Shown here one piece after another: positions 15,266 through 64,000 of a DNA stretch of 64,000 nt. Below the pieces are notes generated by a model. The model had not been told where the DNA came from. It did no database searches and saw nothing but the letters and a program-made list of their open reading frames with translations. This DNA comes from Candidatus Nanoarchaeia archaeon (GTDB lineage: Archaea; Nanobdellota; Nanobdellia; SCGC-AAA011-G17; JACPNG01), in assembly GCA_028714375.1 (NCBI GenBank), contig JAQTMK010000002.1:21812-85811 (forward strand), given 5' to 3'. A program made the translations under genes and the position numbers. The stretch's first letter is position 1. Each line of letters begins with the position of its first letter.

Positions 15266-15348
15266 TTTTACTTTATTAATGGGTGAGACAAACTTTAAAT
15301 ATATTATTCTACAAAAAAATAGATAAAAGAGAGGTTCTATTCAAGAAT

Positions 15349-17025
15349 ATGAAAAAAACAACAAAAATAGTGATTTTGGTATTTCTGATAGCTATAATAT
15401 TAAAATTTGCTTTAAGTTTTTTAGTAAACAATCCAATAGCGTTCAGTGATGATTATACCTATATAAAATTAGCAAGAAATATTTTTTATTTTAACACATT
15501 CTCGGTAAACAGCCAAAACCCATTGTACTATCCTCCGTTATATCCACTTATTTTATCTTTTACTTATTTGGTTAAAGATATGAATTTAATATTCGTTCTT
15601 ATGAAACTAATAAATTCAATAATTTCATCCCTGATTATCTTTCCGATTTTCCTTCTAGCCAGAGAATTTCTGGATGAGAGAGAAACAATTATCTTAACGA
15701 TAATAACTGCCCTGCTTCCTTACAATATCTTATTCTCAAATGTAATAATGGCAGAGAATTTATTTTATCCTCTGGTTTTATTTTCAATATATTTTATTTA
15801 CAAGTCCTTCACAACAAAGAAAATTACCTATGACATTCTTGCCGGAATTTTTATTTCACTAAGTTATTTAACAAAAACTCTCGGTCTCGGATTAATATTT
15901 GTGGTGTTAATCCCATTCTTGTATAAATTAATTAAAGGAAATTATTATGAAATAAAGAAAAAAATAGTTATGGCAGTATTCTTTATTTTAGTTTCATTAC
16001 CTTGGTTTATCAGAAATTTCGAGTTGTTTGGTTTTAGTTTAGGTCTATTTGCAGGAGGCTATCCAACAACAAAAATAACAACTGCGATTTCTTCAACGAA
16101 CTATTTAACATTAATTGGATGGTTTTTTGTTTATCTTGGCTATTTAATAATTTCTTCAGCAATAATCTTTTTTGTATTTAATTTATCTTTCATAAAAAAT
16201 GCATCTGAAAAAAGAGAAAAAATTTTAAGTTTAATAGTCATATCCTCAATCTTTAGTTTTTTAATAATAGCTTCGATGCATCACATCAATGCTATTGCAG
16301 ATTCTCTTACAAATCTATTTTTCCTAAGAGGAAGACCTCTTGGAAGATATATTGAATTTTTAACTCCTTTAATTATTATCGGTGCGTTTATCGGATTTAA
16401 AAAAAGAAATCTTAAGTTTGAAAAAACAGCCCTAATCATACTAACTGCCTTAGCAGCGGTTGTAATCTCACAACTGATATATTATCAATTGTTCCCGGTG
16501 AATACAATTAGTCTATCATTGGTGGGGGGGATAACTTATATAATTGGAACAAATTTATCCTCATTTTTGTTGCCACTACTCTTAATTTTTTTAGCTGTGT
16601 TTGTATTTATAATTTCAAAGATAAAAATAAACTATCTTGTTTATGTTTTCATAACTTTAATGATGTTAACCAGCTTAATAGGTTACTCAGCTATGCTAAA
16701 ACAATCTGGAGACTGGTCAAAAAATCCTCAGATTCATCTGGGAGAATTCCTGAATGATAATAAAATCTCAAATATCTTGATAGATAGGAATAATTGTATA
16801 GAAAAGCTTACAAAAACAACAACTAATGAAGGAATTTGTGATTATGAACATGACATAACTATTATAGGTTTAAAAACAAATGACAATATTTTGATAGATT
16901 TTCCGTCAGAACAGAACCTAAAAAATAATGATTTCCTAATAAGCAAGGAACAGTATAGTTATAAAATAGTAAAAGAAGAAAACAAAATCTATATATATTC
17001 CCTAAAAGACCCAGAATTAAAATGA
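15349..17025 (+). CDS. GT-C-fold membrane glycosyltransferase (ArnT/PMT-like, Dol-P-sugar dependent)
   Basis: Polytopic membrane protein with an acidic first-loop motif (FSDDYTYIKLARN) as in ArnT/PMT/GT83-like enzymes. The ORF-track start at 15283 would leave only 17 bp to the divergent upstream gene, so the Met at 15349 (MKKTTKIVILVFL) is more plausible. Confidence 0.5.
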   Translation: MKKTTKIVILVFLIAIILKFALSFLVNNPIAFSDDYTYIKLARNIFYFNTFSVNSQNPLYYPPLYPLILSFTYLVKDMNLIFVLMKLINSIISSLIIFPIFLLAREFLDERETIILTIITALLPYNILFSNVIMAENLFYPLVLFSIYFIYKSFTTKKITYDILAGIFISLSYLTKTLGLGLIFVVLIPFLYKLIKGNYYEIKKKIVMAVFFILVSLPWFIRNFELFGFSLGLFAGGYPTTKITTAISSTNYLTLIGWFFVYLGYLIISSAIIFFVFNLSFIKNASEKREKILSLIVISSIFSFLIIASMHHINAIADSLTNLFFLRGRPLGRYIEFLTPLIIIGAFIGFKKRNLKFEKTALIILTALAAVVISQLIYYQLFPVNTISLSLVGGITYIIGTNLSSFLLPLLLIFLAVFVFIISKIKINYLVYVFITLMMLTSLIGYSAMLKQSGDWSKNPQIHLGEFLNDNKISNILIDRNNCIEKLTKTTTNEGICDYEHDITIIGLKTNDNILIDFPSEQNLKNNDFLISKEQYSYKIVKEENKIYIYSLKDPELK

Positions 17026-17897
17026 AAGTAATAATTTCAATACCTGCATACAATGAAGAAAAAAATCTCCTAGATGTAATAAAAGAAATAAAAGAAACTA
17101 TGTCAAAAACAAAATATAATTATTCTATTCTTGTCTTAGATGATGGTTCTAGAGATAAAACTGCAGAAATTGCTAAAAAAGCAGGAGCAATAATTATTTC
17201 AAATTCCAGAAACTTAGGCCTGGCTGAAACATTCAAAAAAGAAATGCAAGAGTGTGTTAATCTAGATGCAGATATAATTGTCCATACTGACGCAGATGGT
17301 CAGTATCCAGCGTTGTATATTCCTTACCTAATAAAAAAAATAGAAGAAGGGTATGATTTGGTTTTAGGAAGTAGATTTGGAAAAGGAAAATATTCAGAAA
17401 CCTTTTTAAAAAAAATTGGAAATGTTGCATTCGCTAAAATCTTCTCTGGATTGTTAAAAACAAAAATAACAGATACGACAACTGGATTCAGAGCATTTAC
17501 TAAAGAGGTTGCAAAACTCCCTCTTATTAACACATTTACCTATACCCAAGAACAATTAATAAGAGCAGGAAAAACTAAAATGAAAATAACAGAAATCCCG
17601 ATAACGACAAGAAAAACAAGAAAAAGTAAATTATTCAATGGTCCAATAGATTATGCAATAAAAGCGTGGATTAACATTTTTAGAATCTATAGGGATTATG
17701 CTCCATTAAAATTCTTCGGCCTGTTTGGTGGGATTTTCATATTAGTGGGATTTATTTTGGGTGTGTGGGTAATTTATAATATAATAACCGCTGGAGCAGC
17801 TGGCGGAATCCCAAGAGTAATACTCTCCGCATTGTGTATAATTACCGGTCTACAGATTTGGTTCTTTGGATTCTTAGCAGATATGATAAGAAAATAA
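17022..17897 (+). CDS. GT2 glycosyltransferase, dolichyl-phosphate mannose/glucose synthase-like, with a C-terminal TM hairpin
   Basis: ISIPAYNEEKNL ... VLDDGSRDKT ... HTDADGQ (DxD) is the GT2 DPM1-like signature. The ATGA overlap with the upstream GT-C gene indicates coupling. Confidence 0.8.
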   Translation: MKVIISIPAYNEEKNLLDVIKEIKETMSKTKYNYSILVLDDGSRDKTAEIAKKAGAIIISNSRNLGLAETFKKEMQECVNLDADIIVHTDADGQYPALYIPYLIKKIEEGYDLVLGSRFGKGKYSETFLKKIGNVAFAKIFSGLLKTKITDTTTGFRAFTKEVAKLPLINTFTYTQEQLIRAGKTKMKITEIPITTRKTRKSKLFNGPIDYAIKAWINIFRIYRDYAPLKFFGLFGGIFILVGFILGVWVIYNIITAGAAGGIPRVILSALCIITGLQIWFFGFLADMIRK

Positions 17898-63369: not shown

Positions 63370-63437
63370 ACTATATATCAAACAATACACATTTTTCATT
63401 CGCTATATTTATAAGCTTACTCTAAACAATTCTAAAT

Positions 63438-64000
63438 ATGAAAACCCTGCTTTTAACCGCAATGGCAGATACCCACTATGTTGTACCTCCAACTAGTCTG
63501 GGTTATCTTGCTGGCGCAGTTCGTAATGCAGGACATGAAGTTAGTATCATTGATGGGACAAAGGAAAAACTAACGCCAAAAAAACTTCATGAAGAACTTA
63601 AGAAGATTAATCCAGAGGTTGTTGGAATGACTGTATTCTCTTGCGATGTTAATGTTGTAGCCGGATATATTAAAGCAATAAAAGCATTCAACAAAAACAT
63701 TAAAATTATTCTCGGAGGTCCTCATGTTTCCGGAGTTGAAGAGGAAATATTTGAAAACTTCCCAGAAATTGATTTTGCAATTACCGGTGAAGCAGAAGCA
63801 GGATTTCCAATGTTATTAGAAAACATCCAAAACAATAAAAAAAATTATTCTAAGATTCCAGGATTAATCTGGAAAGAAGATTCAAAAATCAATCATAATC
63901 CATCCTATTTTGAATGTGATTTAGATAAGTTAGCATTTCCTGCATGGGACTTGATAGATCCAAGAACTTATCCAAGAGCACCCCAGGGAGCAGTTTTTAG
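63438..64000 (+). CDS. Partial CDS (runs off window end): N-terminal B12-binding domain of another B12-binding radical SAM enzyme
   Basis: MKTLLLTAMADTHYVVPPTSLGYLAGAVRNAGHEVSIIDG... parallels the N-termini of the other B12-radical SAM paralogs. The window ends before the CxxxCxxC motif. Confidence 0.65.
   Translation, partial: MKTLLLTAMADTHYVVPPTSLGYLAGAVRNAGHEVSIIDGTKEKLTPKKLHEELKKINPEVVGMTVFSCDVNVVAGYIKAIKAFNKNIKIILGGPHVSGVEEEIFENFPEIDFAITGEAEAGFPMLLENIQNNKKNYSKIPGLIWKEDSKINHNPSYFECDLDKLAFPAWDLIDPRTYPRAPQGAVF

Follow-up and report, generated by a model that had tools for sequence, protein, structure and literature searches.

Radical SAM genes paired with glycosyltransferase genes in a probable composite cell-surface glycan island of a Nanoarchaeia archaeon

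In the window, a stretch of 64,000 nucleotides from a Candidatus Nanoarchaeia archaeon, the region from 15283 to the edge is best explained as a composite island for the biosynthesis of cell-surface glycans in a DPANN archaeon (Nanoarchaeia/Woesearchaeota), and eight radical SAM genes, probably nine, lie among about 40 glycan-building genes of this tiny-genome organism. The pairing of radical SAM genes with glycan genes is not a product of chance, and the trait is widespread and not unique to the source genome. The same pairing, apparently undescribed so far, is found in related uncultured archaea and bacteria and suggests radical editing of cell-surface sugars. We consider it somewhat probable that, within the island, sugars linked to dolichol phosphate are tailored by the radical SAM enzymes after GT2 enzymes have made them and before GT-C enzymes transfer them. 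Directly observed are the genes present, their arrangement into operons, the lack of a family assignment for the radical SAM enzymes and, across many genomes, a conserved and statistically enriched adjacency of their genes to GT2 and GT-C genes.

The 42 genes between 15283 and the window edge are closely packed (97% coding), and at least 2.7 kb of the island lies beyond that edge; an overlapping Logan contig (L001) carries, past 64000, the rest of radical SAM 6, an FAD amine-oxidase-like gene and then a PHP_C gene. Pfam scans of the window ORFs reproduced the inventory of the first-pass annotation almost gene for gene and at the same coordinates: AglB, AglH, two Wzx, five GT2, three GT4, two GT9 and five GT-C-like membrane proteins, with a sugar-tailoring set of a carbamoyltransferase, a deacetylase, DegT aminotransferases, hexapeptide and FemAB-like acyltransferases and two SAM methyltransferases. 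The claim that essentially every gene is glycan-related holds for most of them but not for about four of the 42 (37726, 39986, 30233 and 39637), and the island is not AglB-centred as had been stated, AglB being in its right third.

The island may be read in two parts. The first would be a canonical AglB N-glycosylation operon (AglB, AglH, Wzx, GT2, deacetylase and GT4) with an adjoining amino-sugar operon:

47892..52667, minus strand: downstream part of the AglB operon (AglH, Wzx b, GT2 d, polysaccharide deacetylase, GT4 c)
52702..55323, minus strand: AglB oligosaccharyltransferase (PF02516 + PF21436, STT3 domains)
55444..60491, plus strand: amino-sugar operon (NTP-transferase/DegT fusion, second DegT, hexapeptide acyltransferase, FemAB-like acyltransferase, GT2 e)

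AglB matches a 'Candidatus Nanoarchaeia archaeon' protein at 100% identity, and its WWDYG motif (residues 590–594) is invariant in a 20-sequence alignment. The AglH-type gene (PF00953) is at 51663, Wzx b at 50431 and the deacetylase at 48961; the genes of this operon overlap or nearly abut, and their order is kept in loci L004 and L005. The amino-sugar operon, with its DegT aminotransferases at 55444 and 57233, is syntenic in L002, L003 and L004. A neighbouring protein of 740 aa (11657–13879) carries 26 sequons, as compared with 14 ± 3 in shuffles, together with a signal peptide and a C-terminal anchor.

The second part would comprise four decoration modules. In three of them a GT-C-like membrane transferase is paired with a GT2 and in the fourth with a GT9, and in all four a radical SAM gene lies no more than two genes away. 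Apart from the radical SAM genes, the features of this part are as follows:

15283..17025, plus strand: GT-C-like polytopic glycosyltransferase (PMT_2, PF13231), 12 TM-like segments, module 1
17022..17897, plus strand: GT2 a (PF00535), polyprenyl-phosphate sugar synthase type, C-terminal TM segments, module 1
19352..21179, minus strand: two class I SAM-dependent methyltransferases (PF08241), in a same-strand run with radical SAM 1 and 2
21109..21804, minus strand: CDP-alcohol phosphatidyltransferase-family membrane protein (PF01066), 5 TM-like segments
21788..22678, minus strand: LPG_synthase_TM (flippase-like) membrane protein (PF03706, 122 bits)
25277..26431, minus strand: GT4 glycosyltransferase (PF00534/PF13439)
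26527..28059, plus strand: Wzx/MurJ-type flippase a (PF01943, PF01554, PF03023)
28483..30246, plus strand: carbamoyltransferase, NodU/CmcH type (PF02543 + PF16861)
30233..32457, plus strand: 313-aa protein (30233–31174, no Pfam match) and SGNH/AlgX-like acyl-esterase or acetyltransferase (31381–32457, PF13472/PF16822)
32475..33593, plus strand: GT9 a, heptosyltransferase family (PF01075)
36592..37740, plus strand: GT4 b glycosyltransferase (PF00534/PF13439)
37726: QueC-like gene, not evidently glycan-related
38689..39600, plus strand: GT2 b (PF00535)
39637: gene without assigned function, not evidently glycan-related
39986: nucleoside deoxyribosyltransferase-like gene, not evidently glycan-related
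40454..41569, plus strand: GT9 b (PF01075)
41601..43316, plus strand: GT-C-like (PMT, PF02366), 9 TM-like segments, module 2
44426..45100, plus strand: GT2 c (PF00535), Dol-P-sugar synthase type, module 3
46413..47921, plus strand: GT-C c, GT-C-like (PMT_2, PF13231), 11 TM-like segments, module 3
60474..61955, minus strand: GT-C-like membrane protein (PTPS_related, PF10131), 9 TM-like segments, module 4
62014..63369, plus strand: membrane protein with 10 TM-like segments, no Pfam match, module 4

All GT-C-like genes except AglB have a radical SAM gene within one or two genes. The GT-C-like gene at 15283 overlaps the next gene by 4 nt, and this PMT_2-GT2 order is kept in L166 and L167, where the carbamoyltransferase family sits between GT2 and radical SAM genes and the LPG_synthase_TM family again adjoins radical SAM genes. 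Both GT2 proteins tested (a and c) are of the Dol-P-Man synthase/ArnC/GtrB type, all polyprenyl-phosphate glycosyltransferases: GT2 a has full-length PDB matches to the P. furiosus Dol-P-Man synthase (5mlz), ArnC and GtrB, and GT2 c matches 5mlz best (E 9e-25), with ArnC and GtrB after it.

The eight radical SAM genes are those listed in the first-pass annotation, and the CxxxCxxC motif is present in all eight:

17899..19320, minus strand: B12-domain radical SAM 1, BchE/HpnJ-like, unclassified (PF02310, 86.9 bits; Radical_SAM, PF04055; CPYHCTFC)
22675..24138, minus strand: radical SAM 2, HpnJ-like, sub-threshold B12-type domain (PF04055)
24172..25305, plus strand: radical SAM without B12 domain, Fer4_12 type (PF04055 + PF13353)
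33634..35163, plus strand: B12-domain radical SAM 3 (PF02310, 55.9 bits; PF04055)
35165..36595, plus strand: B12-domain radical SAM 4 (PF02310, 62.2 bits; PF04055)
43263..44324, minus strand: radical SAM/SPASM enzyme (PF04055 + PF13186), no B12 domain
45097..46416, plus strand: B12-type radical SAM 5, HpnJ/AprD4-like, module 3 (PF04055; PF02310, 43.5 bits)
63438..64000, plus strand: B12-domain radical SAM 6, 5' part (PF02310, 73 bits)

Six have an N-terminal B12-type domain, as had been assigned; PF02310 is above its gathering score in five, and radical SAM 2 falls below it (25.4 against 32.1 bits). Radical SAM 6 is complete in L001 (11425–12810; 461 aa, B12 domain and PF04055, CPFQCTYC). No curated NCBIfam cut-off, including those for MiaB, RimO and BchE, is reached by any radical SAM protein of the island, the SPASM enzyme among them, and the genes are interleaved in operons with glycosyltransferases, so they are not scattered housekeeping enzymes. 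Because no cut-off is reached, their chemistry is not assignable from family models, and methylation, dehydration, ring contraction and epimerisation may be candidate outcomes of equal standing. The nearest characterised relatives (HpnJ, AprD4 and the Fom3/MoeK5/HpnJ group) edit sugars, and therefore a radical-modified glycan is a reasonable reading of the sequences. Lineage-specific expansion of the six paralogs, which had been raised, is contradicted by their identities, 24–32% to each other as compared with 35–74% to closer relatives in other genomes; to judge from these values the paralogs are old and not a recent expansion, and the closer orthologs elsewhere argue for distinct, maintained functions. 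The suggestion that the island implies cobalamin scavenging is not borne out: the B12 domain of radical SAM 2 is sub-threshold, and the solved structure that radical SAM 5 matches best is that of AprD4, which belongs to the B12-radical SAM network yet binds no cobalamin (PMC12931638). Cobalamin use by the island enzymes is thus unproven.

The predicted structures match several kinds of enzyme. The AF2 model of radical SAM 1 (pLDDT 91) matches AprD4, MgmA, TsrM, CysS and OxsB about equally, whereas that of radical SAM 5 (pLDDT 92.5) has AprD4 as its best PDB match (Foldseek TM 0.82, full length), as has its sequence (phmmer E 1.5e-30). For each paralog tested, the top or second PDB match is the protein glutamine C-methylase MgmA/QCMT (9ccb; for radical SAM 2 it is first, with AprD4 next), and peptide maturases are frequent among SPASM-type enzymes. 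Modification of proteins or peptides, for instance by MgmA/QCMT-like methylation of side chains on surface proteins, with glycan genes as neighbours only through a shared envelope role, would fit these matches but is quite improbable, as the MgmA model TIGR04014 gives 100–129 bits against a cut-off of 360, no precursor-peptide-like gene or RiPP partner is seen among ORFs of at least 100 aa, and the tight translational coupling is with glycosyltransferase genes.

In relatives (Woesearchaeota/Nanoarchaeia), equivalent loci do have radical SAM genes: one or more such genes are present in 39 of the 80 AglB loci compared, and radical SAM homologs make up 67 of the 1148 ORFs in the full set. In these 80 loci radical SAM genes are enriched within two genes of GT2 (OR 2.8, p 1e-4), of GT-C (OR 3.6, p 1e-5) and of both (OR 5.7, p 2e-5). 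With HMM-based calling, adjacency of B12-type radical SAM to GT2 alone is not significant in the AglB loci (p about 0.1), and adjacency to GT-C and to any glycan gene is significant. The family HMMs used detect only families present in the window. A set of 77 metagenome loci (GC 26–72%), collected around relatives of radical SAM 5, has GT2 directly adjacent in 23 and a glycan gene at most two genes away in 42; GT-C adjacency is not enriched in this set. The high density claimed for the island is unusual against the model archaeal Agl clusters but not within Woesearchaeota, where eight of the 80 loci have at least three radical SAM genes within ±10 kb of AglB, as the window does. The contigs of the two closest relatives (67% AglB identity) stop short of the relevant positions.

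Several arrangements recur. The GT2/rSAM/PMT arrangement of module 3 is kept in Altiarchaeales L083 (GT2-PMT_2-unknown-rSAM-GT4) and in L085, from a 4.3-Mb genome (GT2-rSAM-rSAM-PMT). L166 and L167 have PMT_2-GT2-carbamoyltransferase-rSAM-rSAM islands with 60% orthologs of radical SAM 1 and more radical SAM genes; L166 has five Radical_SAM genes in about 9 kb. Orthologs of radical SAM 3 (56–60%) adjoin AglB in L048 and L050, with another in L115; homologs of the 24172 radical SAM have GT2 as immediate neighbour in 7 of 12 cases, and homologs of the PTPS_related protein (60474) often adjoin AglB and radical SAM genes. No GT2-rSAM or rSAM-GT-C fusions were found among the sequences examined. A 38%-identical Bathyarchaeota homolog is placed among unrelated genes, and therefore the wider family is functionally mixed.

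A compact genome and the QueC-like and nucleoside deoxyribosyltransferase-like genes inside the island would suit chance co-location of housekeeping radical SAM genes in a small, gene-dense genome. The probability of 8 radical SAM genes in 42 is ~2e-6 at an assumed background of 2% and 0.003 at 5.8%, the radical SAM frequency around AglB in relatives. Since no housekeeping cut-off is reached and the association recurs in 39 of 80 relatives and across phyla, with enrichment near GT2 and GT-C, chance co-location is hardly credible and is effectively refuted.

Radical SAM 1 and 2 flank an operon of the CDP-alcohol phosphatidyltransferase, the LPG_synthase_TM protein and the two methyltransferases, and an FAD amine-oxidase/desaturase-like gene comes after radical SAM 6, in a cassette with the 62014 protein that is kept in L012. 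Isoprenoid lipids are substrates of many class B radical SAM enzymes, and HpnP/HpnR, ladderane and lipid models are among the matches. That some or all of the enzymes modify lipids, either the dolichol carrier or scavenged membrane lipids or head groups, is nevertheless improbable: lipid-modifying families score far under their cut-offs, a CDP-alcohol transferase homolog occurs in none of the 80 AglB loci, where radical SAM genes adjoin GT2 and GT-C, and such a role would account for no more than two or three genes out of eight or nine.

The coupling of the genes bears on the state of the sugar. Radical SAM 5 has 4-nt overlaps with both GT2 c and GT-C c; GT9 a, radical SAM 3, radical SAM 4 and GT4 b form a contiguous run, with a 1-nt gap between the two radical SAM genes and a 4-nt overlap of radical SAM 4 with GT4 b; the SPASM gene and the GT-C-like gene at 41601 are convergent and overlapping. 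If the enzymes acted instead on soluble nucleotide-sugars or free oligosaccharide intermediates in the cytoplasm, with ordinary glycosyltransferases using the resulting donors, there would be precedent in DesII and BlsE, sugar-active radical SAM enzymes with nucleotide-linked or soluble substrates; the SPASM enzyme weakly matches the sugar decarboxylase BlsE (PDB, E 4e-7), AprD4 takes a soluble pseudodisaccharide, all radical SAM proteins of the island are without TM segments, and nucleotidyltransferase/aminotransferase fusions for nucleotide-sugar synthesis are encoded there. We regard this as unlikely, though the least so of the alternatives, because the genes that recur beside the radical SAM genes are GT-C and GT2 of the Dol-P-sugar-synthase type, often with translational coupling, and not nucleotidyltransferases or dehydratases, and because HpnJ, the top curated model for two paralogs, has a lipid-anchored substrate.

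In the tailoring of dolichol-phosphate-linked sugars that we favour, we infer the lipid-linked substrate, the chemistry, cobalamin use and the target. (i) GT2 would load a monosaccharide onto dolichol phosphate at the cytoplasmic face. (ii) Radical SAM enzymes would abstract hydrogen from an unactivated carbon of the lipid-linked sugar, or of the growing lipid-linked glycan, leading to methylation, dehydration/deoxygenation, ring contraction or epimerisation, and carbamoyl-, methyl- and acyltransferases would attach further groups. (iii) A flippase, for which Wzx and the LPG_synthase_TM-like protein are candidates, would carry the product across the membrane. (iv) A GT-C enzyme would hand the sugar on, either to the N-glycan or to proteins of the cell surface, among which the S-layer-like protein at 11657–13879, rich in sequons and anchored in the membrane, is a plausible candidate acceptor.

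The island resembles the agl clusters of Haloferax volcanii, Methanococcus and Sulfolobus in its WWDYG AglB, AglH-type initiating phosphoglycosyltransferase, Wzx-type flippase, GT2 and GT4, sugar aminotransferases and acyltransferases, in the clustering of all of these and in the adjoining sequon-rich surface protein. It differs in its radical SAM genes, eight or nine in number, and in having two GT9 and five GT-C-like transferases more; the model agl clusters are not known to contain radical SAM genes, and a full-text literature search gave no paper joining radical SAM, AglB and N-glycosylation in archaea. As in ArnC/ArnD/ArnT, GtrA/GtrB/GtrC and Dol-P-Man synthase with PMT, a DPMS/ArnC/GtrB-homologous GT2 is paired with a polytopic PMT/PMT_2 GT-C enzyme. 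The ArnD deformylase is a precedent for editing a sugar while it is lipid-linked, but the editing enzyme in the island is a radical SAM protein, a variant of three-component polyprenyl-phosphate decoration not found in the literature searched.

AprD4, the radical SAM 1,2-diol dehydratase of apramycin C3' deoxygenation, whose partner reductase is AprD3, shares with radical SAM 5 a Rossmann-like N-terminal domain and works on a sugar ring; however, the two are ~20% identical, NF033070 gives 132 bits against a cut-off of 500, and AprD4 belongs to an actinomycete antibiotic pathway and not to a GT2/GT-C module. The class B sugar C-methylators GenK, GenD1, MoeK5 and Fom3 have the same domain architecture and methylate unactivated glycoside carbons; these are bacterial secondary-metabolite enzymes, and none is a significant specific match of its radical SAM proteins. 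Fom3 and MoeK5 co-cluster with HpnJ in similarity networks (PMC9204698). In the HpnI/HpnK/HpnJ step of bacteriohopanetetrol cyclitol ether synthesis, a GT2 attaches an amino sugar to a lipid and the B12-type radical SAM enzyme HpnJ then rearranges the lipid-linked sugar, a ring contraction of glucosamine (PMC9204698). Of the NCBIfam models, HpnJ (TIGR03471) scores highest for radical SAM 2 and 5, at about half its cut-off (316 and 240 against 578 bits), and the island too has a deacetylase. It has no hopanoid genes and its host is archaeal; the lipid here would be dolichol phosphate, from which a GT-C enzyme would then pass the sugar on.

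The island that runs from position 15283 to the right edge of the window is a surface-glycan gene cluster, itself a familiar kind of locus. The window has a GC content of ~30%, and the coding density of the island is 97%, with many gene overlaps of 1-4 nt. The gene list of the first-pass annotation for 15283-64000 agrees almost exactly with Pfam scans of all 42 open reading frames, and the eight radical SAM genes that it placed there were found at the claimed starts (17899, 22675, 24172, 33634, 35165, 43263, 45097, and 63438). All eight carry the CxxxCxxC motif within the PF04055 core, the eighth when completed from an overlapping Logan contig (L001), which provides 3.3 kb beyond the window and is the single source of sequence there. 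Joined with this contig, the partial gene at 63438 encodes a protein of 461 residues with B12 and Radical_SAM domains; an FAD amine-oxidase-like gene and then a PHP_C gene lie downstream of it. By chance, eight radical SAM genes in a set of 42 would be very unlikely (P ~2e-6) at a background of 2%, which is an assumed value and not the genome-wide frequency in Woesearchaeota. No glycan role is evident for a QueC-like gene, a nucleoside deoxyribosyltransferase-like gene, and two unknowns within the island. The first two may be salvage or 7-deazaguanine genes that are unrelated to the island, or they may have a sugar amidotransferase-type function. In the 80 AglB loci considered below, the deoxyribosyltransferase-like protein is the best match of one open reading frame and the QueC-like protein of none. 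The genes in the first 15 kb of the window, to the left of the island, are ordinary ones (a HAD hydrolase, an IF-2B family protein, TspO, FtsJ, three tRNAs, and a PNP/PRTase fusion). Features of the island and its left flank are as follows.

4804-5823, plus strand: Kazal-domain protein, upstream of the island
5826-6521, plus strand: weak Anp1-like (mannan polymerase family) match, upstream of the island
6511-7074, minus strand: PduL-type phosphotransacylase, upstream of the island
8443-9639, minus strand: lamin-tail-domain protein, upstream of the island
11657-13879, minus strand: secreted protein of 740 residues with a signal peptide, a weak Ig_3 match, a Thr/Ser/Glu-rich stalk, and a C-terminal transmembrane anchor
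13991-15265, minus strand: fusion of PNP_UDP_1 and phosphoribosyltransferase, at the left border of the island
37726-38445, minus strand: QueC-like PP-loop protein (TIGR00364, 113 bits, under the cut-off of 150)
39986-40459, minus strand: nucleoside 2-deoxyribosyltransferase-like protein, inside the island

In two other archaeal MAGs, a PNP_UDP_1 gene (2557-3342 in locus L166 and 3538-4323 in L167) is also present upstream of a PMT_2-GT2-...-radical SAM module, which points to conserved synteny of the left border.

Six of the radical SAM proteins, designated radical SAM 1-6 in the order of their genes (17899, 22675, 33634, 35165, 45097, and 63438), are of the B12 type; those at 24172 and 43263 are a Fer4_12-type protein and a SPASM enzyme. 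The first reading had assigned a B12-type N terminus to all six. The N-terminal Rossmann-type domain (PF02310) exceeds the gathering score in five of them (87, 56, 62, 43.5, and 73 bits) but falls below it in 22675-24138 (25.4 versus 32.1 bits). All eight proteins score far below the curated cut-offs of all NCBIfam models, so no function can be transferred to them. They are not housekeeping enzymes, the alternative raised in the first-pass annotation, as the cut-offs of MiaB/RimO and other housekeeping models lie at 251-606 bits and none of these models scores above 75 bits. Membership in three further families was considered and rejected: HpnJ (TIGR03471; 316 and 240 bits versus an equivalog cut-off of 577.6, with hopanoid genes not found in the window), BchE (TIGR02026; top score 222 versus 481 bits), and AprD4 (NF033070; top score 132 versus 500 bits, although the fold is alike). 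Among solved structures, the top sequence matches are AprD4 (6fd2) and 9ccb, which is the MCR glutamine C-methyltransferase QCMT/MgmA (PMC12931638), followed by OxsB, TsrM, TokK, and CysS. The SPASM enzyme gives a weak match to the sugar decarboxylase BlsE. In L166, an FrhB/FdhB-like iron-sulfur flavoprotein (18977-20281) follows the SPASM radical SAM gene and is a possible electron donor for radical SAM enzymes.

Two homolog searches with the B12-binding radical SAM proteins each gave more than 2400 relatives at E <1e-20. The six paralogs have mutual identities of 24-32%, whereas each is closer to relatives in other genomes (35-74%), contradicting the recent lineage-specific expansion suggested earlier; they represent old lineages that differ in function. 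In the subfamily of radical SAM 5 (45097-46416, plus strand), Glu17, Arg19, Cys20, and Cys282 are invariant in 32 sequences in addition to the CxxxCxxC motif, possibly as parts of a substrate-binding or auxiliary site.

The presence of B12-binding domains had been taken to mean that cobalamin is used, a step that is not supported, given the subthreshold domain of 22675 and the proximity of radical SAM 5 to an enzyme that is free of cobalamin. The AF2 model of radical SAM 5 (pLDDT 92.5) has AprD4 as its top match in the PDB, with a TM score of 0.82, as compared with 0.72 or less for cobalamin enzymes. AprD4 is a member of the B12-radical SAM similarity network and yet binds no cobalamin (PMC12931638). 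For radical SAM 1, the model (pLDDT 91) matches AprD4, MgmA, TsrM, CysS, OxsB, and TokK about equally. In view of these matches, cobalamin dependence is plausible where the PF02310 score is strong, proven for none of the six paralogs, and doubtful for at least two of them. No cobalamin riboswitch or other RNA element was found in the window, in which three tRNAs were the only RNAs detected. Complete cobalamin biosynthesis is rare in Woesearchaeota (PMC8421398). If the enzymes truly depended on cobalamin, it would have to be imported. In auxotrophic lineages, annotation of a B12-binding domain is poor proof of cobalamin dependence.

AglB contains the PF02516 and PF21436 domains (STT3/AglB oligosaccharyltransferase), and its WWDYG motif (Trp590-Trp591-Asp592-Tyr593-Gly594) is invariant in an alignment of 20 sequences. 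Its operon includes the initiating Dol-P phosphoglycosyltransferase (PF00953, 51663-52667) and a Wzx flippase (50431-51675), and the gene order of the operon is retained in two comparison loci (L004 and L005). AglB is 100% identical to a protein annotated as Candidatus Nanoarchaeia archaeon, and its close relatives are all annotated as Woesearchaeota, Nanoarchaeota, or Nanoarchaeia, which places the organism among the DPANN archaea. The two closest (67% AglB identity) have the AglB operon and an amino-sugar operon in common with the window, on contigs that stop at or just past the AglB operon, short of the radical SAM positions. The secreted protein at 11657-13879 has 26 N-X-S/T sequons, as compared with 14 ± 3 in shuffled sequences; with these sequence features, it is likely to be a surface glycoprotein and AglB substrate and is a candidate target.

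Species-representative genomes were scanned with an AglB alignment, giving 80 loci of Woesearchaeota and Nanoarchaeia that each extend 10 kb to either side. Homologs of the radical SAM proteins of the window are present in 39 of these loci, with two or more in 17 and three or more in eight; they account for 67 of 1148 open reading frames, and 51 of the 67 are of the B12 type. In the window itself, three radical SAM genes lie within 10 kb of AglB, a count that places it in the top tenth without making it unique. Three loci (L048, L062, and L067) have four radical SAM genes apiece in 13-14.5 kb. Relative to other open reading frames, radical SAM genes are enriched within two genes of a GT2 (odds ratio 2.8), a GT-C (3.6), or both (5.7). 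A repeat of this analysis on the AglB loci with HMMs again showed enrichment near GT-C genes and near glycan genes of any kind; that for GT2 alone was nonsignificant. One locus (L044, 5690-8389, minus strand) encodes a carbamoyltransferase of 899 residues in which a LAGLIDADG_3 insertion, probably an intein, separates the N- and C-terminal carbamoyltransferase domains.

Homologs of radical SAM 5 at ~40% identity occur in Altiarchaeota, Aenigmarchaeota, Pacearchaeota, and bacteria. The gene orders (rSAM, radical SAM) at four comparison loci, of which the last two contain orthologs of radical SAM 1 at 60% identity, are as follows.

L083 (Altiarchaeales): GT2-PMT_2-unknown-rSAM-GT4
L085 (4.29-Mb genome): GT2-rSAM-rSAM-PMT
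L166 and L167: PMT_2-GT2-carbamoyltransferase-rSAM-rSAM-rSAM-rSAM-LPG_synthase_TM-Wzx-SPASM rSAM

A metagenome set for which relatives of radical SAM 5 served as anchors gave 77 usable loci with GC contents of 26-72%. A GT2 gene directly adjoins in 23 of them, a glycan gene lies at most two genes away in 42, and 26 have two or more radical SAM genes of the B12 type. Four loci (L109, L092, L099, and L140) have 4-6 B12-type open reading frames each, five of them in tandem in L109, and in L092 they are flanked on both sides by GT2 and GT-C genes. As these four are from unrelated organisms, radical-SAM-dense clusters of glycan type are found well outside DPANN. The pairing of radical SAM with GT2/GT-C is therefore widespread and not peculiar to this genome. 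The wider family is mixed because a Bathyarchaeota homolog has a context without glycan genes.

Within the island, two GT2 proteins (GT2a, 17022-17897, and GT2c, 44426-45100) have Dol-P-Man synthase, ArnC, and GtrB as top matches, all of which are polyprenyl-phosphate glycosyltransferases. GT2 genes of this type lie beside genes for polytopic GT-C proteins (PMT/PMT_2) with overlaps, and the PMT, PMT_2, and PTPS_related proteins of the island are all polytopic and GT-C-like. Outside the membrane, enzymes of the GT-C type take their sugars from lipid-phosphate donors. With the exception of AglB, each GT-C-like gene lies no more than two genes away from a radical SAM gene, and GT2c, radical SAM 5, and the adjoining GT-C-like gene (46413-47921) are translationally coupled. 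The simplest reading, in which we infer substrate, chemistry, and target, is a decoration pathway similar to those of Arn and Gtr in which the radical SAM enzyme would edit the lipid-linked sugar ahead of flipping and transfer. Rival readings give the radical SAM enzymes soluble sugar intermediates, proteins, or lipids as substrates; the last is hinted at, for two or three genes, by an operon with CDP-alcohol transferase/LPG_synthase_TM and by the amine-oxidase cassette. Among ~170 loci and 340 proteins, no GT2-radical SAM or radical SAM-GT-C fusion was found; the fusions that did occur were solely of GT2 or polysaccharide deacetylase with methyltransferase. These single open reading frames, which join GT2 and a class I SAM methyltransferase or the deacetylase and a methyltransferase (L064, 6511-7788; L130, 4627-5994; L025, 11052-12470), suggest that sugar tailoring is physically coupled to the GT2 step. 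A glycan-tailoring role for the radical SAM enzymes of the island is likely and is the supported part of the first-pass interpretation; the cobalamin inference, uniqueness, and recent expansion are not supported.

In a full-text search of the open-access literature, no paper was found on islands of this kind in DPANN or on a connection of radical SAM enzymes with AglB or with N-glycosylation in archaea, and the words "radical," "glycosyl," and "S-layer" are absent from the main paper on Woesearchaeota comparative genomics. The dense, conserved joining of unclassified radical SAM enzymes to GT2/GT-C modules seems to be a variant of the surface-glycan cluster that has not been described before. 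A broader and rather tentative proposal, which we consider possible but on balance improbable, is that a widespread, undescribed module shared across domains, composed of a GT2 polyprenyl-phosphate sugar synthase, a GT-C, and at least one radical SAM enzyme of the class B type, edits lipid-linked monosaccharides by radical chemistry before their transfer outside the cell and that in DPANN archaea several of these modules are stacked around AglB. Given the attachment of DPANN archaea to other cells, their surface glycans are probably central to host recognition. If the proposal is true, DPANN surfaces would carry C-methylated, deoxygenated, or ring-contracted sugars, new to archaeal glycobiology, and, if cobalamin is really used, would rely on B12 from hosts or the community. 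The pairing of radical SAM with a Dol-P-sugar synthase and a GT-C predicts new sugar chemistry and supplies a defined hypothesis on the substrates of a large group of proteins that are unassigned beyond the name "B12-binding radical SAM." The island is a lead for the enzymology of radical SAM proteins and for the surface biology of DPANN. HpnJ, a B12-type radical SAM enzyme, rearranges a lipid-linked glucosamine that has been placed by a GT2 (PMC9204698), and this step is a direct precedent for radical SAM editing of a lipid-linked sugar made by a GT2.
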